Below, piece by piece: positions 1 to 64,000 of a DNA stretch of 64,000 bases. Source of the DNA: Raja brachyura (lineage: Eukaryota); the NCBI GenBank assembly GCA_963514005.1, contig OY740792.1:67456001-67520000 (forward strand), read 5' to 3'. Both the position numbers and the translations under genes were made by a program. The notes beneath the pieces are model-generated. The model was given only the letters and a program-made list of their open reading frames with translations. It was not told the DNA's origin and did not search any database. Every line of letters starts with the position of its first letter. Position 1 is the stretch's first letter.

Positions 1-290
1 AATATTGACAATGTACTTTCCCTCATCCCAGATTTCCACATTCTTCAATGTAAGGAATGCTTTTCCTTTTTTAAATAAGAATGTGTCGACTTCAATTCTT
101 CCAGAGTAGTTGGCATGTTGTTTTCTGAAATCGCTTTTATCTTCCTTGTACTCATACAAGATTCCGGCATCTTGATCCTTCTCCCACCTCACCCTCGGTG
201 CACATGGATCGTTGCACTCAAACGTACACTTGAAGGTGACATCCTTGCCGATCTCTACATCTGGGGCTGGTTCACAAGTGGTGAATGCAT
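1..290 (-). CDS. IgV-domain exon of a B7/butyrophilin-like (VTCN1/CD276/HHLA2-like) receptor, running off the window edge
   Basis: Manual minus-strand reading: polypyrimidine acceptor (ctttctgtcttttgttcag; AG at 292-291), then a phase-1 open frame (D)AFTTCEPAPDVEIGKDVTFKCTFECNDPCAPRVRWEKDQDAGILYEYKEDKSDFRKQHANYSGRIEVDTFLFKKGKAFLTLKNVEIWDEGKYIVNI. It has the B-strand Cys, the C-strand Trp and the B7/BTN-type Q..YxGR...G.A.L.L.NV...DEGxY signature. Confidence 0.85.
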
Positions 291-869
291 CTGAACAAAA
301 GACAGAAAGGGGTTTATTATTGTCACCTTCACTTGAGTTGAGTTTAGTTTATTGTCACGTGTACCGAGGTACAGTGAGAAGCTTTATGTTGGGTGCTAAC
401 CAGTCAGCAGAAAGACAATACATGATTACAATCGAGCCGCCCAAAGTGTACAGATACACGATAAAGTCAACAAAGTCCAATCAAAGATAATCTGATGGTC
501 TCGAATGAGGTAGATAGTAGTTCAGGAATGCTCTCTAGTTATTGGTGGGATGGGTCAGTTGCCTAATAACAGCTGGGAAGAAACTGTCCCTGAATCTAGT
601 GGTGTGCGTTTTCACACTTCTGTACCTCTTGCCTGATGGGAGAGGGGAGAGGGAAGAAGAGGGAGTGGCCAGGGTGCAACTTGTCCTTAATTACGCTGCT
701 GGTCTTGCCGAAGCGAGTCATAGGAATGGAGGTCCCAACCCGAAACGTCACCCATTCCATCTCTCCAGAGATGCTGCCAGATCCACTGCGTTACTCCAGC
801 ATTTTGTGTCTATCAAAGGAATGGAGGTTGGTTTGTGTGATGGTCTGGGCTGTCCCTTTTCATAACTCC

Positions 870-1878
870 TAGCAATGTTACAAAATTTTGAGATTTCAAA
901 AATCAAGTCTGCAATTTATCCCATCAGATAAAGCATAAAAAGAAGTTTAATTTGACACCTAATTCACTTTCATATCTTCAGTATTAAAAATGTTATGGCC
1001 ACTTTCATACTCAGAAATTAGCATCTTGTTCCCCATTGCCTTTCCATTGACTTAACACAAAAGCTGTGATCGAGGACAGTCAAAGGCCCATAACTTTCTT
1101 AAAATTTAAGAGAACTCAATGAAATTTTCAGTTATTGTAGATTGACGCATTCTGAAACAAATATGAAACAATATTACTTGGTTGACCTGAAATTAAAGTA
1201 TATAATTAGTTAGTTACCTAATTGTAGCTAATTACAAAATTCAATTACTAGATCTAAACATCTATCCATTTCTTAAGAAAAGATAAACTTTTTTATATTG
1301 CCTAAGTGTCCAAATAACATTCACACAATAATTCACAATATAACATGATTTTTAAATCTCATTTTCATGAATTTTACAGGCCAAATGGAAGGAATTTAGT
1401 GCTTAATTCCTGTAAATTAATGGCCATTTAAATCAACTAACGAGTGGGTTTTAGTGGAATGCGGTGGATTAGAATGTTGCGGTTTGCGGTGAGGTCGGTA
1501 GGAAAAACACGGCCGGTTCGTACATTTTTTTTGTCCCCTTTTCGCAACATGAAAATGTGATTAAAGCCTTCCTAAAAACCAAGTTTAAATGTAAAAATAA
1601 ACTGTGCACTTTATTTTCTCCCCTACGTAAAATCCTTCCTGTTGTTGGCGCTCACGGCTTTAGAAGATAATTTTTAAATTACACTAGTCAATAAATAATC
1701 TATCATAAATCAAATGTCGGAGCGATTTCTCTTCAGCAACGAAATCGCCCGACATGGATCGATTTGCCCTGTCTGTGGAAAAACGGCACTTTAAACACCC
1801 CTCCCCCTCAGAAAGGCACCAAAATCACGCCCACGGGGAGTGGCAGAACTGCTCAAGGTAAGTTTTGTAACATACCTA
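870..1878. mobile_element. Non-autonomous TIR DNA transposon (MITE), ~1.0 kb, TAG..CTA termini
   Basis: Left end TAGCAATGTTACAAAA and right end TTTTGTAACATACCTA form an imperfect 16-bp TIR. Flanks taactcc (863-869) and caactcc (1879-1885) are a 7-bp TSD with one mismatch. The first ~370 bp match 22292 onward. Confidence 0.75.
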
Positions 1879-2419
1879 CAACTCCCTGCAATTTATTGCG
1901 GTCTTGAGCTGATCACAAACCAGGCTGTGATGCATCCTGATAAAATGCTTTCTATGGTGCGTATGTAGAAGTTGCTGAGAGTTGCTGGGGATATGCACAG
2001 AGATACAGTGAAAAGCTTTTTTTAGCATGCAGTCCAATCATATCTGATACTATACATAAATAATCAAGCCAAACTCCAACAAAGAGAGTGCAGAATATAG
2101 TTCTCAGCATTGTAGCGCAATAGTTCCATAGACAAAGGAGTTGAGGAGTCTGAGGGTGGTGAATCTGTGGAATTTATTACCACAGACAGCAGTGGAGACT
2201 GTCTTTTTAAAAAATCAGCGATTGCTAGATTCTTGACTAGTAAACGTCAGATATGCCATTTCTTGCGGCCTTGGTAGGTAATTATATGTTATTGTCTTTG
2301 GTTTACTATTGTTACCTGTACTGAGATAGTAAAAACATATCTTTTTACATGCTATCCAGACAGATCATATCATACACAAGTACAACAGGTTGTGCTAAAG
2401 GCAAATTAAAATTACAGTG

Positions 2420-3490
2420 TGTAGGAAGGAACTGCAGATGCTGGTTTACACCGAAGGTAGACACAAAATGCTGGAGTAACTCAGTGGGACAGGAAGCATC
2501 TCTGGAGAGAAGGAATGGGTGAAGTTTCAGGTCGGGACCCTTCTTCAGACTGAGTGTCAGGAGAGAGGGAAACAGAGATGTGGAAGGGTAAGGTGTGAAA
2601 ACAAGAAATCAAAAGGGGAGTTGTCAAGGAAAATATAGAATCAATCATTGTTAGCTGCGGGGCCGTGACAACAATGCATGCAACCAGTAAAATTTAATCA
2701 GGAGGAAACTAATCGAACTAGCATGAGGGAGAGATGGAGAAAGGAGAAAAGCAAGGATTACTTGAAGTTACAGAGGTCAATATAAATACATCTAGGTTAT
2801 AAACTGCCCAAGCGAAGTGAGATGCTGGGCCTCGTACTGACAGCAGAGGAGGCCCAGGACAGAAAGGTCAGTGTGGGAATGGGAGGTGGAGTTCAAGTAT
2901 TTAGCAACTGGGAGGTCATGTTGGCCAAGGCAGACTGAGCGGAGGTGTTCAACGAAACAATCGTCGATCGATGAGGTTGGAGGAGGTGCAAGTGAACCTC
3001 TGCCTCACCTGAAAGGACTGTCGGGGTCCTTGGATACAGTCGAGGGAGGAGGTATAGGGACAAGTGTTGCATCTCCATTCGTTGCAGGAGAAAGTACCTG
3101 GGGATGGGGTGGTTTGGGTGGGAAAGGATGAGTTGACCAGGAAGTTGCGGGGGGAATGGTCTCCATGGAAAGGGGTGGAAATGGGAAGATGTGGATCGTG
3201 GTGGAATCCTGTTGGAGGTGGCGAAAATGTCAGAGGATTATGTGGTGTATGCGACAGTCTTTTCAGGTGAGGCAGAGGTTCACTTGATACTATACCTTCC
3301 CCTCGGTAACAATGTTCCATTCTTCATTTTCCTTGACCTTCGTCCCTCTTGATCTCTCGTTTTTACACCTAACCCTGCCATATCTCTATGTCTCCCTCTC
3401 CCCTGACTCTCAGTCTGAAGAAGCATCACAACCCAAAAAATCACCCATTCTTTCCATCCAGAGATGCTGCCTGTCCCGCTGAGTTACTTC
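2420..3490. mobile_element. Penelope-like remnant with inverted pseudo-LTRs
   Basis: Minus-strand GIY-YIG-like peptide (IQGPRQSFQVRQRFTCTSSNLI) lies between oppositely oriented copies of the gctggagtaactcag...ccttcttcagac repeat (2470-2550 and 3410-3490). Confidence 0.65.
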
Positions 3491-3897
3491 ATCGTCAAAG
3501 ATTATAGTGTGATAGAGCAAGTGTGGATTCATGTTTACAGGCTTGTTAGGCAGCAGCAAATATGTCTTTCATTGTTCTGTTGTCAGTACATTTGAGAAAT
3601 CACACTCTTGACTCTCTCCTTAGAAGATGGTGTAAGTCAATAAGACGAGAGATCTGGTTATTATTGCTCCTTATTCTGTGCACATTATGTTTTAAATGTT
3701 GATTGCTTTGCGAGTGTTGAATACAGATGATTTGGGAACAGATATCTTGCTTGTTGCATCCCACCATTTTATTTTGCTGTTTATTATGATGAAGTTTTAG
3801 GTTTATTATTGTCATGGCCACTGAGGTCCAGTGAAAAGCTTTGTTTTGCAACTATCCAAACAGTTCAGATAATACTCTACATAAATAAATCAAGTAC

Positions 3898-4150
3898 TCA
3901 GGTAGAGCCAAGGGGAAGATACAGAGTGCAGAATATAGTTCTCAGTATTGTAGCGCACCAGTTCCAGAGACAAAGTCCAATGTCCATAATGGGATAGAGA
4001 TGAATCAGGCAGTAATCTAGCTTATGGAAGAATGCTTTGAAAAGCCTGATAACAGAGGGGAAGAAGCTGTTCCTGAGTCTGGTGGTGCCCACTTTCAAGC
4101 TTCCATACCTTCTGCCGCCAGATGGGAGCAAGGAGAAGAGGAATGACAGG
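3898..4150 (-). mobile_element. Rex1/Babar-like LINE 3' fragment
   Basis: LLPSGGRRYGSLKVGTTRLRNSFFPSVIRL, the same C-terminal motif as the Rex1-like copies at 20405, 39335 and 47025. Confidence 0.6.
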
Positions 4151-4324
4151 GTTGGGACAACTCTGATTATTGCTTTTTTTTTTTTAAATGCCTGGTTTGG
4201 GCTTTTCAACATGGGCTTTGGAAAACTGGGGTCATTCTCCATTACATGGTCTGGCAGAAATAGAAGACGCATGGAACTGCAACTGCTGGAATCATACGTT
4301 GAACAGAAAGTACTTAAGTAACAG

Positions 4325-4495
4325 GATATCAGATATGGTCTGGTGTACCCTGCAATATTGAGAGTTACCTATGAGAAGAAGCAGCATCGTTTCCCGAAGC
4401 ATACGGAGGCACTGGAATTCGCTCGGAATATAAAGAAGAAGATAGAAGAAGAACAACAACAACAAGCAGGAGAAGACCCGACAGGAGAGGATTAA
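4325..4495 (+). pseudogene. L1 ORF1p C-terminal remnant
   Basis: Manual translation DIRYGLVYPAILRVTYEKKQHRFPKHTEALEFARNIKKKIEEEQQQQAGEDPTGED*, containing the YPAxLR motif of the L1 ORF1 C-terminal domain. Confidence 0.75.
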
Positions 4496-5050
4496 GCATG
4501 AACTTTACTGACCCGCGGTTATGAATTATTCATTGAGAAAAAGGCGGAATAATGGACTTAAAGTTGTAGTATTGTATTAATTATTAATTACTAATTACTA
4601 ATTATTATGACCTTCCTTATCCCCCTAATATAGTATTACTTATTATAATACTAATTATAATAGAAACTAATAACTAGAAATCAGTTATATGAATAATAGA
4701 AATAGTTACTAAGAACATAAAGTTAGTACCCCACCCCAACATATACAGCATTCTAGATAAGAGCTGGAATAACCAACATCTTTTTTCTAAGAAAACGGAA
4801 GTCCTTAGATTAATAGCCATACTAGTGTGGCTTCCACTTGGGCACACTACACGCTATAAAAGTGTAGTTTCTTTTTTTTCTCTACACCCTTTTATCACCC
4901 TATACTTTTTTTATATTTACATTTTTTACTATTTTTCGATTTTATATTATATATTATATGATTATGGTTACGACTTATATTATATAACCAGGTTAAATGG
5001 ACATGGATTAATAGAATTGGTAATTTTCATCGGACTAAAGCAGGGGTGTT

Positions 5051-6743
5051 ATGTCGGGCCGGAGGAGTCAAGAAGGCTACCCCAAAAAAAGCCACCCTAA
5101 TAATAAAATGCAAGATATGAATGTAAGGATTGGGGGTGATGGAATCACCTTCTGTAGTTGGAATGTTAAGGGAATTAATGAACCAGTTAAAAGGGGAAAG
5201 GTGTTAGCTCAGTTGAATAGATTGAAATCAGATGTTACGTTTCTTCAAGAGACACATCTTAAAAAAGATGCTCAATATAGATTAGCAGCTAAGTGGATTT
5301 CAAAGGTGTATCACTCATCATTTATACATAAATCTAGAGGAGTTGCAATAATTATTCGTAAAGGCATACCTTTTAAACCTAGTTCTATAATAGAGGATAA
5401 GGAGGGTAGATATTTAATAATTACAGGGGAATTACAGTCAAAAAAAGTAATTCTTATGAATATATATGCACCCAATTTCGATAACCCATTATTTTTCAAG
5501 AAAATATTTAATAATATCCCTATTTCCACTCAATATAATTTAATAATTGGGGGTGATTTAAATTGTACTTTAGATAATTATTTAGATAGATCTTCCATGA
5601 AAAGGAAAGCTCTTTCTAAGTCAAGTAAATTTATAAATTATTTTATTAATACATCGAATGTTAAGGATATTTGGAGATTGGATAATCCAACTGGACGTGA
5701 ATATTCATTTTTCTCACCGGTATTTGGAACCTATTCGAGGATAGATTATTTTTTAGTCGATTCAAAATTACTTCCCTTCATGTATGATGCAAAATACCAC
5801 AATATTATTATCTCAGATCATGCACCGCTAACATTCAAGATAAAATTAAAAGATATAGTTAATAAAACTAACACTTGGAGATTTAACCCACAAATATTGA
5901 AGGACAAAGGCTGTTGTAATTATGTGGAGGAACAGATTAAATTATTTTTCGAAACTAATGATAAACCTGAGATTTCCCCATTATTATTATGGGATACATT
6001 TAAAGCATTTATGCGTGGTGCAATAATATCAGCACAAGCATATTTTAATAAAGAAAATCGAAAGACGGAGCAAAAGTTAGAAAAGGAGATAAAACGATTA
6101 GATAGTGAAAATATAAGACATCCTTCTAAAGAGTTAGTTAATAAAATTGCAATATTAAAATATAGATTAAATAAAATATATTCTGACCAAGTTATTAAAC
6201 TTTTTCAAAAAAACAAACAGGTACATTTTGAATTTGGAGATAAGCCACAAAAATTATTAGCACGACAACTCACAAAATTAGACGATGAAAAAACTATACA
6301 TAGTATTAGATCTATGCAGGGAAACATGCTGACTATACCAAAGGATATTAATGACACATTTTTACAATATTATCAAAATCTTTATTCATCAAAATCAACA
6401 GGGCAAACAGATGAAATGGAAAAATTTCTAGACAAATGTCATATTAATAGGCTAGATCTGGAAAGTAGACAATTGTTAAATGCTGAAATATCAGTAAGAG
6501 ATATTGAAGAATCAATTGGTTCGTTAAAAAATGGAAAAACCGCGGGCCCTGATGGCCTGAGTGCAGAATTTTATAAAAAATTTAATGATCTAATCTCACC
6601 AAGATTACAGACAGTGTATAGATATGCATATGAACTAGGAAAATTACCAGAATCCTTAAACGAATCTACAATTACACTCATTCCTAAGTTAGACAAGGAT
6701 CTGGAAGATCCTGGATCATATAGAGCGATTGCTCTTTTAAATA
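5051..6743 (+). CDS. L1 ORF2 N-terminal part (APE endonuclease + linker)
   Basis: SWNVKG, FLQETH, NIYAPN, GGDLN, YSRIDY and SDH motifs, then GPDG and SYRAIALLN. Interrupted at 6744 by a CR1 insert. Confidence 0.9.
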
Positions 6744-7390
6744 GCATTCATAGCGAAAGGATTTGAGTATAGGAGCAGGGAAGTTCTACTGCAGTTGTAC
6801 AGGGTTTTGGTGAGGCCACACCTGGAGTACTGCGTACAGTTTTGGTCTCCAAATCTGAGGAAAGACATCCTTGCCATAGAGGGGGTACAGAGAAGATTCA
6901 CCAGACTGATTCCTGGGATGTCAGGACTTTCATATGAGGAAAGATTGGATAGACTCGGTTTGTACTCGATGGAATTTAGAAGATTGAGGGGGGATCTTAT
7001 AGAAACCTACAAAATTCTTAAGGGGTTGGACAAGCTAGATGCTGGAAGATTGTTCCCGATGTTGGGGGAGTCCAGAACAAGGGGTCACAGTCTAAGGATA
7101 AGGGGGAATTCCTTTAGGACCGAAATGAGGAAAACATTCTTTACACAGAGAGTGGTGAGTCTCTGGAATTCTCTGCCACAGAAGGTAGTTGAGGCCAGTT
7201 CATTGGCTATATTTAAGAGGGCGTTAGATGTGGCACTTGTGGCTAAAGGGATCATGGGGTATGGAGAGAAGGCAGGTACGGGATACTGAGTTGGATGATC
7301 AGCCATGATCACATTGAATGGCGGTGCAGGCTCGAAGGGCCGAATGGCCTACTCCTGCACCTATTTTCTATGTTTCTATGTTTCTAAATA
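6744..7390 (+). mobile_element. Young 5'-truncated CR1-clade LINE inserted in L1 ORF2
   Basis: CR1 RT C-terminus (LVRPHLEYCVQFWSP...RRLRGDLIETYKI...WNSLP) and a (tttctatg)n tail. The 6-bp duplication taaata lies at 6738-6743 and 7385-7390. Confidence 0.9.
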
Positions 7391-9543
7391 CTGACCAAAA
7401 AATATTAACTAAAGTACTATCTCGGAGGCTAAGTTTAGTGATTTCTAAAATAATACATCACGATCAAACAGGTTTTATTCCAAAACGTTATTCATCACAC
7501 AATCTCAGGTGCCTGTTTAATATCATATATTCGAAAAGAAAAAGAGACACAGAATTAGCAGTTATATCGTTGGATGCAGAAAAAGCATTCGATCAGGTGG
7601 AATGGTCATATTTATTTAATATAATGGAAAAGTTTCAATTGGGGGATGGATTCTGTAAATGGGTAAGAATATTATACTCTAATCCTACTGCAAGAATTTT
7701 AACTAATCAAATACTATCACCTAAATTTAAACTATTTAGGGGATGCAGACAGGGATGTCCGTTATCCCCTTTATTATTTGCCTTGGTCATAGAGCCTCTG
7801 GCTGAAAGAATTAGATCTGAACCTGAAATATATGGTTATAATACTGATACAACAATTAATAAAATATCTTTATATGCAGATGATGTTTTGATTTATATTA
7901 CAAGACCGGAATGCAGTATTCCCAAGTTATTTAATGTTATAAATGAATTTAGTATATTTTCAGGATATAGGATTAACTGGAATAAAAGTGAAATTATGCC
8001 TATAACTGGCATAAATGTAAATATATTGCAACAATATCCATTAAAAATAGTCACAGATAAATTTAAATATTTAGGAATTAATGTACCTAAATCCTATAAA
8101 TTATTAATTAAATCTAATTATCCTCAATTATTAGATAAACTTATAAAAAATATTTCATATTGGAAAACACTTCCTATATCTATGGTTGGTAGAATTAATG
8201 CTATAAAAATGATTTTTTTACCACAATTGTTATATTTGTTTCAGGCTATTCCTTTTTTTCTCCCGAAATTTTTTTTTAAGAAAATTGATAATATTGTTAA
8301 TAGTTTTATTTGGGACTATAAAAGTCATAGAATAAGTAAAAAACACTTATGTAAGTCTAAGATAAATGGAGGGTTAGCACTTCCAAATTTTTTATATTAC
8401 TTTTGGGCAGTTCAGATTAAGAATATGAATTTTTGGTGGATAAATCTGGATAATGAACCAATGTGGTTAAAGATGGAAAAGGAAGACTGTTTACCTTTTA
8501 ATATAGGCTCGATTCTCTTTGCGCCAAAGGAAGTACAAAAAAAGATTTATAGGGATAACCCTATAATTTATAATAATAGGCGTATATGGAAACAGATAGT
8601 TAAGACTTTACATCTGGATAATCTATCCTTCAGGTTACCAATTAGGAATAACCCATTGTTTAAACCCTCAATATTAGATGCGGGGTTTAGACTCTGGGAG
8701 GATTTAGGAATTAAAAGGATAGGACATCTTTATAGAAATGGAAAATTTTTATTATTTGAAGAGTTGCAAGATATTTTTGGATTGCCTTCACAACATTTGT
8801 TTAGATATTTACAAATTAGAGATTACATTAAATGTGATACACAAGATTATAAAAATAAAGAACCAGGCTTATTAGATGGTTTGTTTAATTTACATCCAAA
8901 TACGGAAAAGTTAATAGCTCATATATATAATATTATTCTAGATAAAGAGACCCCAATAACTGAAACATATCGCCAAGCATGGGAAAATGAAATTGGATTA
9001 CCTATAACAAAAGAAATTTGGGAAGAAAGTTTACAGAGAATAAATCGGTGTTCTTTAAATGCTAGACATATATTAATACAATTTAAAGTACTATATAGAT
9101 TACATTATTCGAAAACCAAATTAAATAGTATTTTTCCCAATCTCTCCGCTATTTGTGATAAATGTAAGAATCTAGAAGCAAACTTAATACATAGTTTTGT
9201 AACATGCCCTAAGTTGAATTATTACTGGACAGAAATTTTTAAAGTAATTTCTGAAGTTCTTAAAGTTAAACTGGACCCTGACCCAAAATTAATAATATTT
9301 GGAATTCCGGAATCAAGTTTGGTTTTGACAGTAGATCAAAGAAATTTCTTTGATTACTGTTTGATAATAGGGAAAAAAATCATATTGAAATTTTGGAAGG
9401 GAACATTATCCCCAACAATTAAAATGTGGACAGCAGAGATGCAGAAGACGTTATATTTGGAAAGAATTAGATTTGTCCTATTGGACAGGTATAATTCTTT
9501 TGAACTGATATGGTCTCCATATATACAGTATCTAGAGAAGTAG
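7391..9543 (+). CDS. L1 ORF2 C-terminal part (reverse transcriptase + CCHC zinc knuckle)
   Basis: DQTGF, LDAEKAFD, GCRQGCPLSP, LYADD, KYLG and CxxC-x8-H-x4-C motifs; no stops. Confidence 0.9.
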
Positions 9544-10084
9544 CTGTTCTTGGCATCACGGCTCGACGGGCACCCTACGGAATCCGATGAGAATAACTTA
9601 TTTACATATGGGATTAATGCGCATGTCCCATTGATATTATTGTTTGAAATAATTTCATGTATAATGTACTTAGTTGTTTTTGATTTATATATATATATAA
9701 TATATATATTTTTTTAAATTTGTATTTGTAGATTGTTTTCTATTTCTATCTCTTTTTTTCTTTTCCTCTTTATTATATATCTTTTTCTATCTTTATTTCC
9801 AAAAAAACAGACGATATTAATTATTGATGTGCTATTTGTAGAAATTTTGAATTAAGATGATGTTTTAAATGTGTGTTATACATTGTAAACTGGTTACTTC
9901 AAATAAAAAAATATTTAAAAAAAAAGAAAGTACTTGAGTAACTGAGAGGGTCACGCAGCATCTCTGGAGGACATGGATGGACGATACTTCAGATCGGGAC
10001 CCTTCAGAAGTAGAAGATCTTCTCCAGGGTCTTCAGTGTTACAATACTTGACAAGGTTATATTCAAGGCAGAATTGAATTAATT

Positions 10085-10385
10085 GTAAGATACAGCATGG
10101 AAACAGGCCCTTCGGCCCACCGAGTCCATGCCGCCCATCGATCACCCGTTCACACTAGTTCTATGTATCTCACTTTTGTATCTACACACGACAGGCAATT
10201 TACAAAGTTCAATTAACTTACAAACCCACATGTCTTTGTGTGTGGAAGGAAACAGGAACACCTGGAGGAAACCACACGGTCACAGGGGGAACATGCAAAC
10301 TCCACACAGACAACACCCGAGGTCAGGAATGAACCCGGATCTCTGGCACTGTGAGGCAGTGGCTTTACCAGCTCTACCAACCAAT
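10085..10385 (-). mobile_element. tRNA-derived V-domain SINE (HE1-like)
   Basis: Reverse complement of the SINE at 44370-44680 (tRNA-like head, V-domain, gggcctgtttcc tail). Confidence 0.65.
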
Positions 10386-10856
10386 GTGCTCAATTGATGG
10401 AGAGCCGTATGACCATACCTGTGAATAGGCCAAGGCAGAATATCAGTGGACAATTCGAAAATATTATGATTCATTTTGCCAGTGGTCACAGTAGTGGAAA
10501 AATTTGGTGAGTGGAGACCGACAAAGTTGTTATGTCCCAAAGGTCCTTTTACAGACTGGTTATCCTAATCGCTGTTGGGATGAAACAGAACCGCAGATGT
10601 TGGTTTAAATAAAAACACAAAGTGCTGGGGTGACTCAGTGGGAAATGCATGTGGAGGGGTTGTTTCCAGTAGTGGTGGGCCTCGGACCAGAGGGTACAGC
10701 CTTAGAATAAAAGGACGGACCTTTAGAATAGAGAAGAGGAAGAAATTCTTTAGCCAGAGTGTGGTGAACCTGTGGAATTCATTGTCACAGATCGTGACAG
10801 GTTCTTAATTAGCAAGGGCACCAAAGGATATGGGAAGAAGGCAGGAGAATGGGGTT

Positions 10857-12854
10857 TAGGCTGTGGGCCGAGCAACAAAAAGGTGTCTAGAAATCAACTT
10901 TCGTGACCCATGTCTCGGAACTACATTAAATGTTGTACAGATTTAGATAAAATATTTAGAGAAGGAACTCATAACTCGTAAGTGCCAAAAGTTGCACATT
11001 AATTCATTAAACTAATTAGAAAAAGTAAGCGCCATTAGTATCCAGAGCTCATATTACACCATGGGGAGCCTATTTCCGTATTGCAGTCTCATAAAATATT
11101 ATTACTATACCATCTATATATATATGTATATATGACGTGAATTTGACTGTAATCATATATAATTATGTATAATTATATTATATAAAAATAATATAATTAA
11201 TATAATTGTGAGGTTTTTTTTTTAATGAGACTGCTGCAGAGGTCCTGCTGAACCAGCCTAATTAATGGGCGAGTGCAGTTCCTGTGGGTTTCCCCATTTA
11301 CTGAACCCCACTGACTGCCAGTGTGCAAAGTGGGGGTCACAGCCATAGTGGGACTAGGGCAATGCCAGGCTGGGGGAAGGCTAAGGCAGGAAAATGCCTA
11401 ACCCTAACTCGCCCCCCCCCCCCCCCCTCCAGAGCAGCCCACGGCTGGATAATAGACAATAGGTGCAGGAGTAGGCCATTTGAGCCAGCACCGCCATTCA
11501 ATGTGATCATGGCTGATCATCCACAATCAGTACCCCGTTCCTGCCTTCTCCCCATATCCCCTGACTCCGCTATCTTTAAGAGCCCTATCTAGCTCTCTCT
11601 TGAAAGCATCCAGAGAACCCGCCTCCACCGCCCTCTGTGGCAGAGAATTGCATAGACTCACCACTCTCTGTGAGAAAAAGTGTTTCTTTGTCTCCGTTCT
11701 AAATGGCTTACACCTTATTCTTAAACTATGGCCCCTGGTTCTGGCTGGAGCTGGAGCCGCTTTGGGACCGGCTGCGGGTTCCGTGCGTGTGGCCCCGCAG
11801 CGCGCCCACCTCGGCCAGCACGCCCTTCTGGATCATCGTGGTGATGATGGTGGCGAAGAGCACTGCCCTGCACGCTACCCGGGCCACCTTCAGTACCGCC
11901 ATGGCGCCGGCTCCGTCTTACCAGCAGCCTGATAGCCCGACCGACCCCTCGCCGCACCCACCGGAGGCCCGGCCCAATGCTCACCAACCCACCGGAGGCC
12001 CGGCCCAATGCTCACCACCCATGAGGAGGCCCGGCCCAATGCTCACCAACCCACCGGAGGCCCGGCCCAATGCTCACCAACCCACCGGAGGCCCGGCCCA
12101 ATGCTCACCACCCATGAGGAGGCCCGGCCCAATGCTCACCAACCCACCGGAGGCCCGGCCCGATGCTCACCAACCCACCGGAGGCCCGGCCCAATGCTCA
12201 CCACCCATGAGGAGGCCCGGCCCAATGCTCACCAACCCACCGGAGGCCCGGCCCAATGCTCACCAACCCACCGGAGGCTTGGCCCGATGCTCACCAACCA
12301 TGAGGAGGCCCAGCCCAACTCTCACCACCCACCGGCAGCCCGACCGATCCTCCACAGCATCCATCGGCCTACCGACAAGCCCGACTGACTGATTGACTGA
12401 CTGACTGACTCTAACCCTAGCAGCACATTTGTTATTTATCATTTTTATTTAACAGTTCATATTATAACTTTATAAAGCTAAATCAATTGAGAAACAAAAT
12501 GAACAGCAAGGTGAGCATTACCTTTATTCCTTGGAAACCTTGTTATAGTTTTGATGCAATGAGGAGGCAGCCATGATCCCAGGGTCCTCGCTGCCAGCGA
12601 CCATATAACAAAGCGCGGGATTGGTCACTTTGCGTCCGACCTCAATGTCAAACGTGCATTGATTGGGCAATTACTACTTAGAACATCTGAGTTTTTTTTC
12701 ATATTTCTTAAGAATGTGCAGGTTTTGGTCTTGACGAGTTTCAGGTTTGATTTATATAATATTTTAAATATGTTATATAATATGTTAAACATTTAGGTAG
12801 TTCCGTGAGTTGGGTCACAAACATGAACGACAAAGCTCCTCGGCCCACAGCTTA
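10857..12854. mobile_element. ~2-kb non-autonomous TIR element carrying a CR1 fragment, a GC-rich segment and a minisatellite
   Basis: TIRs TAGGCTGTGGGCCGAG and CTCGGCCCACAGCTTA (15/16 match). It splits a CR1 3' end (gagaatggggtt | gagagggaaagatag). Confidence 0.7.
11955..12320 (+). repeat. 31-bp GC-rich minisatellite with a 3-unit (93-bp) higher-order period
   Basis: Unit ccggaggcccggcccaatgctcaccaaccca; every third unit carries the catgagg variant. Confidence 0.9.
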
Positions 12855-14069
12855 GCTGAGAGGGAAAGATAGATCATCCATGATTAAATAGCCGAGTAGA
12901 CTCGATGGGATGAATGAACTTACGACTGGTTGGGATCATGAAAATCCCTTGCGAAATTAAATCCCTTGAGTAGATGTAGGAGAAGAGGGAAATCTGGAGG
13001 GCAAAAAGAGGATAAAGTACTGCTTTGGCAAATAATGTCAAAGATCCTCCGAAGATAGTCGAAGTGTAATTAAGGGCCTAAGAGTAACTAGAGAGAAAAT
13101 AGGGCTCCTTATAGATCAACAAGGTCATCCATGTTGGAGCCACAGGAGATAAACAAGATGTTAAACCAAGAGTCAGCTATCAAAAGTGCTTAATTGTTAG
13201 ATGTACTGCATGGAACAACGGAACAATTAAATGCTTACTTGCTGGCAGCTTACCAGGTCCATAAATGCAACAGCACACCGATAACATAGAAGACAGAAAA
13301 ATAGTTGTAGGAGTAGGCTATTCCTCCCTTTGAGCCAGCACCGCCATTCAATATGATCATGGCTGATCATCTAAAATCAGTACCCCGTTCCTGCTTTTTC
13401 CCCCATATCCTATAGCCCACAAGAGTTAAATCTAACTCTCTCTTTAAAACATCCAGCGAATTGGCCTCCACTGCCTTCTGTGGCAGAGAATTCCACAGAT
13501 TCACCACTCTCTGGGTGAAAAAGTTCTTCCTCATCTCACTCCCAACCCCTTAAACCGTGACCTCTGGTTCTGGACCCAATTTCGGGAACATTTTTTCCTG
13601 CAACTAGCATTAGATTAGATTAGATTCTTTATTTGTCATTCAGACCTTTTGGTCTGAACGAAATTTTGTTCCCCTGAAGTCATGCATATAAAAAAAAATT
13701 TTAATGATAGAAACACACAATAAACACAAATTTAACATCCACAAATTTAGCATGTCCAAAAGAATTTTATAGTTTCTATAAGATCCCCTCTCATCCTAAA
13801 TACCAAAATAGTATTTCTAAATGCAAACCCAGTTGACCCATTCTTTCATCATATGTCAGTCCCGCCATTCCGGGAATTAACCTGGTGAACCCACACTGCA
13901 CTTAAGAGAGATAGAGCTCTAGGGGTTAGTGAAATCAAGGGATATGGGGAGAAGGCAGGCACGGGTTATTGATTGGGGACGATCAGCCATGATCGCAATA
14001 AATGGCGGTGCTGACTTGAAGGGCCGAATGGCCTCCTCCAGCACCTATTTTTTATGTTTCTATGTTTCC

Positions 14070-14490
14070 CTCCCTTGCTGTGTCTCTGTCTTTCGCTCTC
14101 TCCTTCCCTCCCTCCCTCCCTCCCTGTCTCTGTCTTTCACTCTCTCCTTCCCTCCCTCTCTGTCTTTCACTCTCTCCTTCCCTCCCTCTCTCCCCGTCTC
14201 TGTCTTTCACTCTCTCCTTCCCTCCCTCTCTCCCCGTCTCTGTCTTTCGCTCTCTTCTTCCCTCCCTCTCTCCCCGTCTCTGTCTTTCACTCTCCCCTTC
14301 CCTCCCTCTCTCCCTGTCTCTGTCATTCGCTCTCCCCTTCCCTCCCTCTCTCCCTGTCTCTGTCATTCACTCTCCCCTTCCCTCCCTCTCTCCCTGTCTC
14401 TGTCATTCACTCTCCCCTTCCCTCCCTCTCTCGCAGTGTCACTGTCTTTTTCTCTCTCCTTCCCTCGCTCGCTGTGCCTCTGTCTTTCGC
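14070..14490 (+). repeat. 40-bp pyrimidine-rich minisatellite
   Basis: Unit tgtctttcactctctccttccctccctctctccccgtctc, about 10 copies. Confidence 0.9.
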
Positions 14491-14939
14491 TGGAGTAACT
14501 CAGCGGGTCAGGCAGCATCTCTGGAGAGAAGGAATAGGTGACGTTTTGGGTCAAGACCTTTCTTCGGACATTCTACTGATCCAGCCTGACCTGCTGAGTT
14601 CTCCAGCATTTTATGTTTTGCTCTTTAAATACATTCGTGGTCCACTGAAGAAACAACACGATAGACCACTCTGGAAGTGCAAGTTTTGCTGTACACTTCA
14701 TACGGTAGAACATATCATAATACACCTGGAGTGATTTAATGGGGTTAAAAATTTTTTTAATTTGCTGTCTAGAATTAATCGGGTACCCACCCTGTGTACC
14801 TTATATCAGATTTAAATCGGAATTCCGATTTTTGTTATCCTATATGTCGAGTTTTAGTGCCCGATTATTTGGCAGCCAATCAACCGCTCTCCAAGGGGGT
14901 TGTGTCCAATCACCGACGAGCTTCTCTTAAAATTCCCAT

Positions 14940-15362
14940 CAGACAAAAATGCTGGAGAAACCCAGCGTGTGAGGCAGCATCTAAGGAGTGAAGGAAAGAG
15001 GCGACGTTTTGGGTCGAGACCCATCTTCAGACTGATGGAGGGTGGGAAGAAGAAAGGTAGAGGCGGAGACAGTGGGCTGAAGGAGAGCTGGGAAGCGGAG
15101 GAGAAAGCAGGGACTACCTGAAATTGGAGGTCAATTTTCATACCGCTGGGGTGTAAACAGCCCAAGCGAAATATGAGGTGCTGCTCCTCCAATTTATGGT
15201 GGGCCTCACTCTGGCCATGGAGGAGGCCCATGACAGAAAGGTTGGATTCAGAATGGGAGGGGGAGTTGAAGTGCTGAGCCACTGGGAGATCAGGTTGGTT
15301 ATTGCGAACTGAGTGTAGGTGTTGTGCGAAGCGATCGCCAAGCCTGCACTTGGTCTCACCGA
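14940..15362 (-). mobile_element. Penelope-like 3' fragment (GIY-YIG C-terminus + pseudo-LTR)
   Basis: GETKCRLGDRFAQHLHSVR...VAQHFN...LEEQHLIFRLG..HPSG, followed by a degenerate hammerhead-like motif at 15003-15030. Confidence 0.75.
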
Positions 15363-15734
15363 GGTTTATCATACGCTCAATAATCCAACCAGAATTTTGT
15401 TTGGAAGTGGAAAGAAATAATAGAAATTGCATTCATTGCAACGTTTAAAAAGAGATGAGATACTGTATTGTAATTTTGCTGCATGTCATTGTGGTGTAAA
15501 TCATGTCTTGATTGGTGAATACGTTTAATTTGTGACTTTATTTGAAGCAGAAATAACATGTGAAAGCTTCATTTACCATAATTCTGACTGGTAACTACGC
15601 ACTTCGTCCGAGCACATTATCGCACGTGTCATGCACGCCGTCTCAAATGACCACCTAAACTGTCTTTTGGCAACCTAAAAAGCTGCCTAGGTTGCCCAGC
15701 TGGCAACAGGGGAAAAAAGTTAAGTGAGAGCCCT
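15363..15734. mobile_element. Partial hAT-type MITE (one end aagttaagtgagagccctg)
   Basis: Terminus ...CCCTG typical of hAT TIRs; the same terminus recurs at about 19235-19252. Confidence 0.5.
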
Positions 15735-15743
15735 GGGAACCAG

Positions 15744-16570
15744 ATGCGAAAGACAGTGGTGGAAAATATAATTTCAAAACAATCTAAAATGTCTATTATG
15801 ATTAATGAATCTACTACTGTTAATGGGAAAACTGTTCTAGTAGTCTGCTTTAGTGAATGGTCCCAACCTATATCATTCTATTTTGACTTGGAACATATGA
15901 AACTTGGTGCAAATGCAAAATCTATATATGATGGGCTTCTAAGGTGCTTACAAAGAGGTGGTTTTTCAATACAGTATCTAAAAGAAAATGTGATATCACT
16001 TGTAACTGATGGTGCATCAGTAATGTTAGGATGAATTGTAGGGGTTGCAAAACTATTTCTTGATGATTTCCCTAATGCAACTGTTTGGCACTGTGCCAGT
16101 CACAGGCTTGAACTCAGTGGAGGTGATGCTATAAGTGAAGTTGCAGGTTTGGATCATTTTCAGATATTTTGTGATAAATTGTATTCCTTATATCATAGGT
16201 CTCCTAAAAATCAGGATGAGTTAACTGCATGCTCTGAGGCTCTTCACTGCCAACTGTTGAAAATTGGTCGTGTTTTCAATGTGAGATGGGTTGCTTTGTC
16301 TTACCGAACTGTAAAGGCAATGTGGCCGTCTTATAAAGCTATTTGGGAGCATTTTGGAAAAGCAAGCTGTGATGCTTCAAGATCTAGTGCAGAGAGAGCA
16401 AAGTACGAGGGGCTGGAAAAAGTATTAGAATCATCAGCTTTCATAAATAATTTGGGCTTGTGATGGACAGTTTGCTAGAATTGTCTGAACTGTCACTTGA
16501 ATTGCAGAATCGAAATTGTACACTTAGTAAATCACATGAGGAAATTAAACAAATTATCAAGGTTCTTGAA
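15744..16570 (+). pseudogene. Decayed hAT transposase (ZNF862/KIAA1586-like)
   Basis: SIMINESTT (first catalytic D decayed), LVTDGASVMLG, WHCASHRLEL (CxxH) and VRWV (RW) motifs; in-frame stops at 16032 and 16461. Confidence 0.8.
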
Positions 16571-17467
16571 TGTCAAATAGAGAAGCCATGAACTTAGTAC
16601 CCCAGTTCCTAAAACCCATTTCCATCACTGGAAACCGCACAGCTCCATATTCAGTGATGGTTTCTTCCCAGCTGTTATCAAGCAACTGAACCACCCAACC
16701 AACAACTGGAGAGCGGTCCTGAGATACTATCAAGTAATTCAAAAGAGATTTAGATAGAGCTCTTAGGGCTAACGGAATCAAGGGGTATGGGGAGAAGGTA
16801 GGAACGGGGTGCTGATTGTGGATGATCAGCCATGATCACATTGAATGACGGTGCTGGCTCGAAGGACCGAATGGCCTACTCCTTCACCTATTGTCTATGT
16901 ATCTATCTCATTAGAGGCCCTCGGACTATCTTTCATCAGACTTTGCTGGTCTTGCTCTTGCACTAAACGTTATTCACATTATTCCCTTTACCATGTATCT
17001 ACACACTGTAAATGGCTCGATGGTAATCATGTACTTTACACGTCTTTAGAGTGCGAGAGGAAACCAGAGCACACAGAGAAAATCCAGACGGAAACGGGGA
17101 GAATGTAAACTCCTTATAGACAGCGCCCATAGTAAGGTTCAAACCTGGGTCTGTTCACCTTCTCTCCCCTGCATTCTGACTCATTGTTACCCATTATTCA
17201 TCCAACAATGGTGGCGTCACAGGTACATGGATATGATAGAGGGATATGGGCCAAATGCAGGCAGATGGTACTAGTGTAGATGGAACATGTTGGTCAGCGG
17301 AGGCACGTTGGGCTAGAGGGCCTTTATCTACACTGTATGGCTCTAATAAATGTGAACGGAAAGATTGTAATGTGAGGAGGTTACTCATAATAACTCTCGC
17401 CTCATCAACGGTGAAGAACACCAAGACTGAAACACTTGCAACCACCCACACCCAGAAAGGAACTTAC

Positions 17468-17517
17468 CAGCAGTAACGAACAAGATGGAAAACACCAGAT
17501 GTTTGAAGTACATTATT
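17468..17517 (-). CDS. Signal-peptide (leader) exon of the B7-like gene; CDS 17513-17468
   Basis: Acceptor ttctatttcag, ATG at 17513, hydrophobic MYFKHLVFSILFVTA plus 1 nt, then the donor G|gtaagt. Phase 1 joins the IgV exon in frame as ...VTA-D-AFTTC. Confidence 0.75.
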
Positions 17518-21058: not shown

Positions 21059-21132
21059 TAATTCCTTCCACCACCTAAAACAATGGTTTAAAAACTCTTA
21101 CAAAAGATAAAGAATGCTTGATGCAACTCAGC

Positions 21133-22128
21133 AGGAAATGGAAACTAAGGCAATTAAATTTCTGGTGGCGGAGGGGTCTTCAACATGAAATACTGTTGAG
21201 TTTCCAACATTTTCTGCTGATATTTTAGGTTTCCAGCATCCACGGTGTTTATTTAGGCCGAATATCCCTCGACGCCTTGCCTATCCCTATACGCCTTGAT
21301 CATTACTGTGCTACAATGATCAAAGGAACTTAGTAGACAGACCTGCAATCTTAACATAACAGATATAAAATATATATATTTACAAGTGGAGTTATAATTA
21401 CAAAACATTGACACGGAATACGTACATTTATGGAAAATCACCCCGAGCATCTGCAGATCTGTCCTAAACCTTTTCCCTCCAACTCCACTGTGAGGTGAGG
21501 AAGTTAAAATTGATACAGAATCAGGTCCGGCCCAATCGGATGCCAGATTGCCGGCCGCGTCACTAGTTGCGAGGCAGAGGCGAGATCGGCAGGTTGCAAA
21601 TAGGTGCGTTCATCCACCACTGCGCCTGCGTGCACCCGCTGCGACGCCGGCACTCCCCCTCCCCTTCCTAACCTTCCTTCCAATCCAGCCCTTGTGGACC
21701 GTCCCGTCCACAGGGCACCTCTCTGTGTCGGAGTGTTTGTATCATTTTAATAATCTTTTTCATTTGTAAAATAGTTATGTTGATGTTATACTTTTTAGAT
21801 TATTCGTTTAGTTGGTTGGTCAGAATTATCAAAACAGTATACTGAGGGATACATATAGATACATGTTGCTTTATTTTTAATACACTAATGTCTACAAGAT
21901 AAGCACATATTCGGTTTTGGTGCAGTCATTGCCGAACTGAAACCTAAAACACAATGACTTGAATATTCAAATATGTGAGGCTGGTAAGCTAGTGGAATTT
22001 ATCAAAAGGTTTATGTCATGAATCACATGCATTAATGTCAATGTATCCGTTGATTTCAGGGGTTTAGGTTAAAGTGATTTGTTGACCAAGTCCGTGAAAT
22101 GGAAACAGAAAGTCAGAGAAACGAAACT
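21133..22128. promoter_or_regulatory. Candidate promoter: CpG-rich segment flanked by ISRE-like motifs
   Basis: AGGAAATGGAAACT at 21133-21146; a CpG-rich, apparently non-repeat stretch at 21525-21730 with CCAAT and TGCGCCTGCG; a GAAA cluster GTGAAATGGAAACAGAAAGT...GAAACGAAACT at 22094-22128. Confidence 0.4.
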
Positions 22129-22580
22129 TAGTGGCGGTTCTCCACTAACGAAACTTAATAGGGAGATTCTTCGTGGTGGGTGTGGTACAATCTGCATCAG
22201 CAGGGTCTTGATCGTTTGGCAGGTGGGCTGAGGAATAGTTGATGGAATTTAATACAGAGAAAATGTGAGGTGTTGATAAGAGGACATCGTTTAGCAATGT
22301 TACACCATTTTGAGATTTAAAAAATCAAGTCTGCAGTTTATTCCATCAGATAAAGTAAAAGAAGAAGTTTAATTTGACACCTAATTCACTTTCACATCTT
22401 CAGTATTTAAAACGTTATGGCCATTTTCATACTAGTAAATTAACATCTTGTTCCCTATTGCTCTTCCATTGACTTAACTCAAAAGCTGTGATCGAGGACA
22501 GTCAAAAGCCCATCACTTTCTTAAAAATTAAGAGAGCTGAATGACATTTTCAGTTATTATAGATTGAAGCATTCTAAAAC

Positions 22581-33690: not shown

Positions 33691-34850
33691 GTGGCCGTTG
33701 AAAAATCCGTTAGTGAGCCTTTGGTTGCTCCACAAGCAGAAGCCACGGAGGAAAACCCAGTGCCTAAAAAATGTAAAAGGAAATCTGAAGGGCCTGTGGT
33801 TTCTGATGAATCTTATTCTGGAAGTCCAGACAGAAAGGCCTTATGGCTCAGAATGGATCAAATGGAGAAAATGCTCCAGACAATAATCAACCAAGGGTCT
33901 AAAAACCCAGAATATTCCCAGGCAGCCCCTGAGGGGGTTCCATATCATGAATATGGTGCCAGTTTGAATTGGGAATTTGAAACTCCAGTGCCTGGGATTG
34001 GGCTGGAGGAAGTCTCCTTTGAGCAAGTCTCAGGAGTACCAGGGCTGCATGAGACTGATCCTGAAGGTGGTGATTTCGGTCATGAGTACCCACCACAATA
34101 CAATACAAAAATATTGTTCCAGGTGTGCCTGATGTGGCACAAACTTTTGCTATACCTGGAGGAGGCGGTGAGGCCATGGAAGAAAACCTGGCGGCCAACA
34201 TTAATTATATGGTCTCTCACCCGCTTCAAGAAGCTGTTATGGTTGAAACAGCAGATTTATATAAAACACCTGTTAATTGTACCTCACTGAAGGTACCTAC
34301 AGTGAATCCGGCTATTTGGGCGCCAATGTCATCAATGGTGCGGGTGCAGGAAATACGATTTCAAAGAATCCTCAAACTGATTTCGGCTAGGATCACTGCT
34401 TTTGGAAGGCAAGTGGAAGGTTGTGGAATGACCAAAGTTCAGAAGGATATGTTGGCATTGTTCTGCAACTCATATTTTGAGATTAATTGTATGAGGAAGA
34501 TTGCCATTTGGCCCATTTTACATCCAAGATTTGCAGGTTTGTGCAGATCAAGCAATGTTCAAGCTCCTGGTTATTTGTTCGGAGAAAATCTGTCTAAACA
34601 AATTAAAGAAATTGATGAAGAGGCAAAGACTATTGGCCTCATGAAACCCTTCGTTTTTGGCCAAAGAAGAGCCGGTCAAATGAGAAGGGGATTTGATTTT
34701 GGAGTAGGAACAAGCCGAGGCAGGAGTATGGTAAGGAAGAATTACCAACCAGCACAGCCGAATGTTCATCCATATGTTGGGAGAAGGAGACCATCACGTC
34801 CGGTTGGAGAGGAACAAAAACTTTATCCTATTAAAGAAGAATCTTTGGAT
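33690..34850 (+). pseudogene. DIRS gag-like ORF1 (frameshifted)
   Basis: YKTPVNCTSLKVPTVNPAIW...QKDMLALF...EINCMRK...LFGENL, located upstream of the RT. Confidence 0.65.
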
Positions 34851-35829
34851 GAACCTCAGATTGGTGGTAGACTACAAATGTTTTATGATGAATGGGACTG
34901 TATAACATCTGATCGTGTTATATTAGATACTGTTTTAGGATCTACCATTGATTTTGTAGAAGGTATTGATCCACCGGGACAGAATAAGCCTAATCATATT
35001 TTGGTGTTTTCTGTATTTGAAAAAATTCAAATTGATAAAGAAGTTAAGAATTTGTGTAAAAAAGGAGTTATCGAGAAATCAGGTGAGGATCCACAACAAT
35101 TTGTGTCAAATATTTTCCCCAGACCAAAGAAAGATGGGGGTTGTAGAATCATTTTAGACCTCACACAATTGAATCCATTATAAACATTTAAAAATTGATA
35201 CCTTCAACACTGCAATGCAGCTGGTATCAACAAATTGTTACATGGCTACAATAGATTTGAAGGATGCATATTATTCAGTACCAATTCATTGTCACTTTCG
35301 CAGGTATTTGACATTTAATTGGATGGGACGGCTGTGGCAATACAAAGCATTACCTAATGGATTAAGCTCAGCTCCTAGGCTGTTCACTAAATTGTTGAAA
35401 CCAGCACTTGCACTGCTAAGGGCACAAAAACACATCATTATGGCTTATCTAGATGACATTTTAATTGTCAATGCTAATCAGGAGTCAGCTGAAAAATCAG
35501 TCTCAGCAACTACAAGTCTGTTTGAAAGGCTAGGGTTCCTGATTCATCCAACAAAATCTAAGTTACAGCCATCCCAAACCATTGAATATTTGGGGTTTGT
35601 GATTAATTCAGTTACCATATTAGTAACTTTACCAATAGGCAAGATTGTTGATATTACAAATCTATGTCAGTGCCTTATTGACAAACCTTATCCCTCCATC
35701 CAAGAAGTTGCTAAGGTTATTGGTAAGTTAGTAGCAGCATTCCATGCTTGTAGAATTTGGTCCACTGCATTACCAAAATCTCCAAAGGGCAAAAACTCAA
35801 GTGCTTATACAGTGAGCAGGCCACTTTGA
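34851..35829 (+). pseudogene. DIRS reverse transcriptase
   Basis: IGGRL, FVSNIF.RPKKDGG.R.ILDL, IDLKDAYY, LPNGLSSAPRLFTK, YLDD and YLGF motifs; stop at 35181 and a later frameshift. Confidence 0.9.
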
Positions 35830-35836
35830 CAGGCCC

Positions 35837-36730
35837 ATGCAATTGCCAAAGGAAGCCTTATCAGAATTGCATTGGTGGATTGAGAATGTTCCACAAGCTG
35901 TTAAAAACATATTAGTTCAGCAGCCAGCAGTAATTTTGCAAACTGATGCAAGTTCTCTCAGATGGGGTGCTACGGATAATGAGACCAGCTGTGGGAGCAG
36001 ATGGACTGTCCAAGAGGATTTAATTCTCCAAACATATGGTATAAATTATTTGGCGTTACTGGGAGCATTTTATGGATTAAAAGCTTATTGTTCTACTATG
36101 AAGGACTTGCATGTCCAATTACAAATAGACAATACCACAGCTGTGGCATATATCAATCACATGGGTGGAGTAAGATCATTATCATGTGATCATCTGGTTA
36201 ACCAGATGTGGCATTGGTGTGTTGGTAAGAACATTTGGCTTTCAGCTATTTATCTCCCAGGGAGAGACAATATTGTGGCAGACAAAAGATCACGAACATT
36301 TAAAGACAGTACAGAATGGATGGTAAATCCGCAAATTTTCAAAAATATTGTCAGTCGGTATGGAGTACCGGACATTGATCTGTTTGCATCCAGATTAAAT
36401 CACCAATTGCCCAAATACGTGTCCTGGGAACACGATCCAGGGGCTGTAGCGGTGGATGCTTTCTCGCTACACTGGGGGAATATGTTCTTTTATGCTTTTC
36501 CCCCATTCTGTCTGATTGGGCAATGTCTCAAGAAAATAGCGCAAGATGCTGCCAAGGGCATTTTGGTGGTGCCAAATTGGCCTACACAGTCATGGTTCCC
36601 ATTGATGCTGAAAATGATTATTGAACCATGTATGACGATTCCTAGTTGCAACGATCTGTTGACACAACCAGTAACAAAAGAAATTCATCCATTGCATGAT
36701 CATATGAATTTGTTAATCTGCAGGTTCTGA
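35837..36730 (+). pseudogene. DIRS RNase H + DNA N6-adenine methyltransferase-like domain
   Basis: RNase H motifs QTDAS, IDNTTAV and N..AD; MTase-like motifs DIDLFAS, DAF, YAFPPF and PNWPTQSW. Confidence 0.85.
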
Positions 36731-36738
36731 CCAGACCA

Positions 36739-56590: not shown

Positions 56591-56724
56591 TGCTTCAAAT
56601 AACATCCAACACAGACAGAGCAGTAAGCTCTCTCGAATTATTCAACGACGTCTTCACTATGATTTCTGCAGTCAGCACCATCTTGCAACGAACCGGAAAT
56701 GAAGCAGTCATTATCGGCGCCATC

Positions 56725-62700: not shown

Positions 62701-64000
62701 AAACAACTGTGCAAGAACAAACTGACAACCAAAGTTATTTTCGTGAACACTCTCCTTTTAAAAGGTGAGGCAAACAATTGGGCAGCAGCCACCTGACCTT
62801 GAAAATTCTTTTCGATTACGCAAACTGTTTAAAAGGCGAGGCAAACAATTGGGCAGCAGCTACCTGACAACAAAAAACATTTCGTAAAAACTCTCCATTT
62901 GAAAGGCGAGGCAAACAATTGGACAGCCACCACATGACAAGCATGATTCTTTTCCTGAAAACAAACGTTTTAAAAGGCGAGGCAAACAATTGGGCAGCAA
63001 CCAACTGACAACCAAAATTATTTTCGTGAATACTCTCCATTTAAAAGGCGAGGCAAACTATTGGGCACAGCCACCTGGCAACCAAAATGCGTTTAGTGAA
63101 CTAAAACCTTTTAGATGTCGAAACAATCAATTGGGCAGCAGTCACCTGACAACGAAAATTATTTTCGATAACGCAAACTGTTTAAAAAGCGAGGCAAACA
63201 ATTGGACAGCAGCTACCAGACAACCAAAAACATTTCGTGAACACAAACTTTTTAAAAATCGAGAAAAACCATTGGGCAGCAGCCACCTGACAACCAAAAT
63301 TATTTTCGTGAACACTCTCCTTTTAAAAGGCGAGGCAAACAATTGGGCAGCAACGAACTGACAACCAAAATTATTTTCGTGAACAATCTCGTTTTAAAAG
63401 GCGAGGCAAACAATTGGGCAGCAGCCACCTGACAACCAAAATTATTTTCGTGAACACAAACTTTTTAAAAGGCGAGGGAAACTATTGGAAAGCAGCCACC
63501 TGAAACCTAACATTCTTTGAGTGAACAAACACTATTTAAAAGACAAGGCAAACAATTGGGCAGCAACCAAATGGCAACCAAAATTATTTTCGTGAAAACT
63601 CTCATTTTGAAAGCGAGGCAAACAATTGGGCAGCCAATACATGACAAGCAAAATTATTTACCATAACACAAACTTTTTAATAGGCGAGGCAAACTATTGG
63701 GCACAGCCACCTGACACCAAAATGTTTTTCGTGAACTCAAACTATTTAAAAGGCGATGCAAACAATTGGGCAGCAACCAACTGACAACCAAAATTATTTT
63801 CGTGAAAACTCTCCTTTTAAAAGGCGAGGCAAACAATTGGGCAGCAGCCAGCTGACAACCAGAATTCTTTACGTTAACACAATCTTTTTCAAAGGCAAAA
63901 CAATCAATTGGGCAGCAGCCACCTGACAACGGAAATTCTTTTCGATAACACAAACCGTTTAAAAGGCGAGGCAAACAATTGGGCAGCAGCCACCTGACAA
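56725..64000 (+). repeat. 71-bp tandem satellite array (about 100 units, continues past the window end)
   Basis: Consensus aaaaggcgaggcaaacaattgggcagcagccacctgacaaccaaaattattttcgtgaacacaaacttttt; period 71 (ggcgag at 56774 and 56845). Confidence 0.95.

Follow-up and report, generated by a model that had tools for sequence, protein, structure and literature searches.

A gene of four coding exons for a predicted anchorless B7-family protein in the skate Raja brachyura, a probable cartilaginous-fish counterpart of B7-H4

We analysed a 64,000-nucleotide stretch of the Raja brachyura genome (OY740792.1; G000:C12:67456001-67520000, hereafter the window), for which a preliminary description had proposed a hidden B7/butyrophilin-like gene, possibly a lineage-specific co-signalling receptor, with its leader and immunoglobulin V (IgV) exons on either side of a 17-kb intron. 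With moderate confidence we interpret the locus as an intact gene of four coding exons for a 233-residue B7-family protein composed of leader, IgV and IgC parts and devoid of a membrane anchor, which would be the counterpart of B7-H4 (VTCN1) in cartilaginous fishes and would act as a secreted ligand or decoy. This interpretation is based on the exon structure of the gene and its copies, the sequence and fold of its V domain, the C-terminal ends of its chondrichthyan relatives and the genes that surround it.

Gene structure, copies and transcripts

The gene lies on the minus strand. Its leader exon (17468..17517, 50 nt) follows an AG acceptor, carries the ATG at 17513 and ends at a G|GTAAGT donor; it consists of 4 nt 5' of the ATG and 46 coding nt for a signal peptide, which was called by eye and hydropathy; since this exon has an acceptor of its own, a further upstream exon is likely, at an unmapped position. 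The IgV exon (339 nt; 1..290 of the window, whole exon G000:C12:67455952-67456290) begins at an acceptor at 290, preceded by a pyrimidine tract, and ends at a G|GTATGT donor, its last 49 nt lying outside the window; it matches Pfam V-set with an E value of 1.3e-8. Both exons join in frame at phase 1 to give the peptide quoted in the preliminary description, whose positions for the two exons are confirmed, with canonical splice sites and an open frame. The phase-1 intron between them (291..17467, minus strand, 17,177 nt) is about two thirds repeats, with locally multi-copy sequence covering 66% of it, and contains a long interspersed nuclear element (LINE)-type element on the plus strand (5039..9543) with endonuclease and reverse transcriptase frames, which is interrupted by a second repeat fragment and occupies a stretch absent from the other two gene copies.

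Outside the window, on the same strand, the IgC exon (C12:67454630-67454893, 264 nt) follows 1,058 nt past the V exon, and the tail exon (C12:67450151-67450203) a further 4,426 nt past the IgC exon, with a stop after 17 codons. The adjacent sequence, which the preliminary description had proposed to inspect for C-domain and transmembrane exons, yielded the C-domain exon and a hydrophilic 17-codon tail; a transmembrane exon was not found. Leader, V and C each occupy their own phase-1 exon, and the 233-residue product has six cysteines and no hydrophobic segment past the leader.

The leader and the V exon each match three places on C12, every one in an open frame, and they recur together in all three copies of the gene at spacings of 11.0, 12.3 and 17.2 kb, so that their pairing is not due to chance; the leader is also the strongest of four leader-like candidates on the minus strand of the window. 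Splice sites are canonical and the frame is open in 3/3 copies. Copies A and B are located on one contig and copy C beyond a 200-N gap. As the blocks on both sides of this gap are collinear (C12:67138826-67406190, up to 99% identical), copy C may be an allele of copy B; the tandem copies number two or three, and the duplication may be a false one of the assembly. A 7.4-kb unit is repeated about three times at C12:67.30-67.32 Mb. Among the copies, pN/pS (the ratio of nonsynonymous to synonymous differences) was 1.5, 1.8 and 8.1, and introns diverge by 1.7-2.3% against a pN of 2.8-3.8%; with Fisher p values of 0.21-0.80 on 14-22 changed codons, positive selection is not claimed.

Transcript evidence comes from relatives, in the contigs of 4 of the 17 listed runs, and such contigs drop rare isoforms. 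The joint between the C and tail exons (4,426 nt, CT..AC) is present in contigs of three runs (X6, X15 and X16), and V and C are directly joined in one contig of run X6. The joint between leader and V was not seen in the reads, where the V piece ends at the acceptor, with 64 (X6) or 100 (X15) further letters beyond it. Database proteins of other skates begin with a near-identical leader fused to the V domain of this gene, and three of the homologues (P0003, P0009 and P0010) are encoded from the leader onward on contigs of 991-1,458 nt, which are too short to hold the intron and thus support the joint.

Family membership, the missing anchor and the V-domain cysteines

A profile search recovered 14 family proteins among 1,206 candidates, 11 of them named VTCN1 or VTCN1-like, one butyrophilin-like and two without a name, the named ones being all from rays or sharks. 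A Callorhinchus member (XP_042190234.1) was found by a separate representative search, one family member bears CD276-like as its database name, and the skate V domain is 85% identical to a little skate protein. RefSeq proteins named VTCN1 or VTCN1-like (for example XP_055500206.1, XP_032889366.1, XP_051869732.1 and XP_067896839.1) belong to the same family, have a similar length and the same anchorless end, and differ from the skate gene only in copy number and individual residues; these names are automatic, and no functional study of the proteins was found in the literature. The skate gene is therefore a B7-family gene that is not species-specific, and its discovery is not in itself new, because annotations of it exist for many sharks and rays. 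Two earlier suggestions have to be given up at this point: the gene is not hidden, since most of its relatives carry RefSeq names of VTCN1 or VTCN1-like, and it is not lineage-specific at the level of species, since the family spans rays, sharks and chimaera.

The suggestion of a B7/butyrophilin (BTN)-type V domain in a leader-plus-V layout is supported, with B7-H4 as the best match by both sequence and fold: it is the first of 54 PDB sequence matches of the V domain (E 9e-9) and its best fold match, with a template modelling (TM) score of 0.88. Pfam V-set and C2-set_3 (PF22705) are both above the cut-off, the top 54 of the 59 PDB matches of the two-domain profile are B7/BTN-family or MOG chains, and models of the family reached predicted local distance difference test (pLDDT) values of 88 and 91.

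A hydrophobic tail is absent in 18/18 aligned chondrichthyan proteins (peak hydropathy of the last 60 residues -0.61 to 0.57) and present in five of the six bony-vertebrate VTCN1 or VTCN1-like rows (peak 0.93-1.42 over the same length). In the 233-residue product no transmembrane or glycosylphosphatidylinositol (GPI) stretch was found, nor a transmembrane or cytoplasmic exon in the gene; the tail exon of every copy has the stop codon, and a search for a phase-1 hydrophobic exon common to the copies returned none that was convincing. The gene ends after IgC and its short hydrophilic tail, which does not agree with the co-signalling receptor proposed before; in the absence of an anchor, we predict a soluble signal or a decoy in place of a receptor.

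If so, the signal peptide would carry the protein into the endoplasmic reticulum (ER), where it would be glycosylated at one to three sequons. The last exon would extend the C domain by one predicted strand and end at the point where bony-vertebrate VTCN1 runs into its anchor; in the model of P0003 (pLDDT 88) the tail adds such a strand, and the last residues are unstructured. The protein ends in DL or EL in 14/18 chondrichthyan homologues and in all three local copies. According to the accessible part of a reporter study, D at position -2 gives only partial ER localisation, S at -4 works less well than K, R, H, N or an aromatic residue, and there are ER proteins that end in RTDL, KEDL and QEDL (PMC2140024). 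Given the weakness of D at -2, we read the DL/EL end as at most a weak retrieval signal, in which case the bulk of the protein would be exported, perhaps upon induction by interferon, and could bind a V-type receptor of lymphocytes, dampening or buffering signalling.

The same end allows a different account, in which an xx[DE]L signal of the KDEL-receptor type would hold the protein in the ER as an intracellular chaperone or brake for an immunoglobulin-superfamily partner, with release under stress only. The wide occurrence of DL/EL on a tail predicted to be unstructured, and the ER proteins with comparable ends, speak for this. We nevertheless consider it somewhat unlikely: besides the weak residues at -2 and -4, the PROSITE motif [KRHQSA]-[DENQ]-E-L is matched by none of the chondrichthyan ends, four of the 18 homologues have no DL/EL end, and it is around F-G in the V domain that the amino acid differences among copies are concentrated. 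Clustering of this kind suits a ligand that acts outside the cell.

A feature missed in the preliminary description concerns the V-domain cysteines. The skate gene has Val at the position of the F-strand Cys, so the canonical B-F disulfide cannot form. The F-strand Cys is replaced in 10/11 ray proteins and in the chimaera, and every one of these proteins has an A-strand Cys; the F-strand Cys is present in 6/6 sharks, where the A-strand Cys is absent, and Narcine has both. Over the 18 proteins, the A-strand Cys occurs without the F-strand Cys in 11, the reverse in 6 and both in 1. Judging from these residues, the lost B-F disulfide of rays has likely been replaced by a bond from the new A-strand Cys, presumably A-B. 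Elsewhere in the genome, two B7-like genes at C8:87.80 and 88.00 Mb (L089, L090, L123-L126) also have the A-strand Cys and not the F-strand Cys, and the one at 88.0 Mb has a hydrophobic exon in addition to V and two C exons.

Orthology with B7-H4

Orthology of the skate gene with B7-H4 (VTCN1) is probable. A GH47 mannosidase gene of MAN1A type (C12:66.76-66.95 Mb) is found 0.2 Mb and a TENT5-type gene (C12:66.49 Mb) 0.65 Mb from the nearest copy, which from their position we take to be MAN1A2 and TENT5C. This neighbourhood agrees with the order around VTCN1 in human 1p13 (VTCN1, MAN1A2, FAM46C), as given in the available portion of PMC9394163, and with a salmon block of the same gene order in that of PMC13752854. 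On its other side a VTCN1 orthologue would be expected to have TRIM45 and TTF2. A GRF-finger/SNF2 (TTF2-like) gene is located 31 Mb away, at C12:35.9 Mb, and a decayed copy of the gene that neighbours the B7-like gene (see below) lies about 15-50 kb from it, which suggests a rearrangement. That copy (C12:35915634-35916698; L108, L109) is a repeat-interrupted VJ exon, and the resemblance of its flanks to DNA upstream of copy C suggests an old breakpoint.

With B7-H4 (PDB 4gos; P0172 from bat, P0169 from sturgeon, P0170 from paddlefish) the skate protein shares the V + C layout, the neighbourhood and a short extension after the C domain, at 22-25% identity over the aligned proteins. It differs in its shorter signal peptide, its tandem copies and its C-terminus, which has no hydrophobic anchor to match the human transmembrane segment at 260-280 (from the available text of PMC13600086), and the human V disulfide 56-130 cannot form in most rays. 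The skate protein thus fails two features of mammalian B7-H4, anchor and canonical disulfide, though its ectodomain is of B7 type.

Trees were built from 49 V domains and from 33 V + C rows (one row dropped for short coverage). The phylogeny proposed earlier gave a firm answer in one part only: the chondrichthyan family forms its own clade (100/100) outside BTN, and its sister group is not firmly placed.

Several observations weigh against orthology or against the interpretation as a whole. The trees, which included no named CD276, PD-L1 or HHLA2, show only a polytomy where a link with the VTCN1 clade would be sought, and the approximately unbiased (AU) test merely fails to reject that link (p 0.44). 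There is no reciprocal best hit: with paddlefish VTCN1 as query the cluster comes 30th among 42 genome matches, and with bat VTCN1 28th among 45. None of the 48 filamin-domain matches by which TRIM45 was sought is on C12. A hydrophobic tail is also missing from the frog VTCN1-like row. Run X1 is without the C-to-tail joint, and runs X15 and X16 are of unrecorded type. Finally, the best PDB match of the two-domain profile is BTNL8 and the best fold match of the two-domain model is PD-L1 (TM score about 0.70), comparisons that B7-H4 entered by its V domain only among the matches.

As regards these last two, butyrophilins (BTNL8, BTN3A, BTN2A1) give the best matches of the two-domain profile and resemble the skate protein in an ectodomain of IgV + C2-set_3, whereas the skate protein has no transmembrane or B30.2 part; a butyrophilin proper is unlikely because the BTN clade (99/96) does not include the family, and the BTN-like V exons of the skate genome are mostly on C25. 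PD-L1 (CD274) is about 20% identical, and its anchor and tail are missing from the skate protein.

The unplaced sister group also accommodates a separate, chondrichthyan-specific B7 paralogue near the VTCN1 position, for which the database name would reflect best-hit naming. VTCN1 queries do prefer V exons at C12:61.6-61.8 Mb, C31, C8 and C25 over the cluster, and two family members are named butyrophilin-like or CD276-like. We judge a paralogue unlikely, as a local profile search found no further B7-like exon over 824 kb that begin within the MAN1A-type gene and span the cluster, the C12:61.7 Mb exon groups with other unnamed fish sequences and not with VTCN1, and the skate V domain best matches B7-H4. 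The top matches of bat VTCN1 are three near-identical B7-like V exons at C12:61.62-61.77 Mb (L088, L091, L092), which to us appear HHLA2-like; IFT57, which we take to mark the HHLA2 locus, is on C2 in the skate genome. A membrane co-signalling receptor with a transmembrane exon further on or alternatively spliced, as in the preliminary description, would suit the B7-type V domain and could have escaped the four runs examined, yet it is highly improbable given the tail-exon stop in all copies, the C-to-tail splice in three runs, the want of a convincing shared phase-1 hydrophobic exon and of any anchored form among the 18 homologues.

What appears to be new is the form of the protein: a B7 protein that has no anchor in rays, sharks and chimaera alike, whose V domain shows a cysteine swap and whose DL/EL end is conserved. 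No description of this family was found in a literature search that did not take in every relevant work, and the string VTCN1/B7H4 was absent from one elephant shark genome supplement. If the skate gene is the B7-H4 orthologue, an entire class of vertebrates would have a T-cell checkpoint protein that works unanchored, which would bear on the role of soluble B7-H4 and offer a candidate receptor in the neighbourhood.

Upstream region and neighbouring genes

A low-copy block common to all three copies (21065..22197, minus strand), with a GC-rich core near 21500-21750, is a candidate for the promoter and first exon. It contains an exact 12-nt match to the interferon-stimulated response element (ISRE) of chicken Mx (22117..22128, minus strand; element sequence from the accessible part of PMC7245633) and a second match to the ISRE consensus only (21134-21146, minus strand). 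In each copy the exact 12-mer precedes the leader by 4.4-4.6 kb, and it is found nowhere else in the 824 kb. It occurred in 0/2,000 simulated 6-kb stretches, a figure to be read with the element having been spotted by eye before the test, the copies representing one inherited site and the transcription start site being unmapped; for the loose ISRE consensus, the probability of a chance match in 6 kb is 6%.

Directly downstream of copies A and C, also on the minus strand, is a non-rearranging gene with two intact-looking copies (C12:67426678-67430812, L023, and 67126560-67131810), consisting of a leader, a single V exon with a J-like GxGT motif and a C1 exon (VJ-C1). Its V domain best matches T-cell receptor (TCR) V-alpha and the variable domain of the new antigen receptor (VNAR) in the PDB, and the best match of its C1 exon is UrIg2, with a score summed over three domains. 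No pair of recombination signals was found near the VJ exon, no transmembrane exon could be assigned and no 3' exons were found, and a homologue search with the C1 exon gave nothing among 362 candidates. We presume that the gene may be PRARP-like. Genes of this sort have been sought as relics of the ancestor of antigen receptors, according to the available text of PMC12227049 and PMC10751288. A further V domain on a single exon, also ending in a J-like GxGT motif, is located at C1:143423994-143424320 (L110).

A complex predicted between the V domains of the B7-like and VJ-C1 proteins scored 0.40, against 0.05 for the best of three controls, which were unrelated proteins and not chosen immunoglobulin relatives; runs agreed in at least 96% of contacts, with a partner pLDDT of at least 80. 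In the benchmark the mark was reached by 51/78 solved and 2/108 mismatched pairs, and scores of 0.60 or under comprised only five solved pairs and all four passing mismatches. Because similar B7-receptor complexes have been solved and the controls were unrelated, the predicted complex is a lead only, and its score may come from likeness to solved B7-receptor pairs. Adjacency, co-duplication, the TCR-alpha/VNAR-like V domain and this prediction are the grounds for considering a soluble, interferon-inducible B7-H4 of cartilaginous fishes with the VJ-C1 product as its linked receptor, an arrangement we regard as very unlikely. Were it true, the VJ-C1 gene could point to the receptor of B7-H4, described as still unidentified in the available text of PMC13600086.

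Other features are minor. The sole coding gene recognised in the 200 kb upstream of the window is a rhodopsin-family G-protein-coupled receptor exon (C12:67608857-67609270, L057). Within the window, positions 34086-37672 (plus strand) hold reverse transcriptase, Dam-like methylase and tyrosine recombinase frames of a retroelement that we take to be DIRS-like, and a long degenerate repeat array with repetitive reading frames on both strands extends over about 56500-64000.

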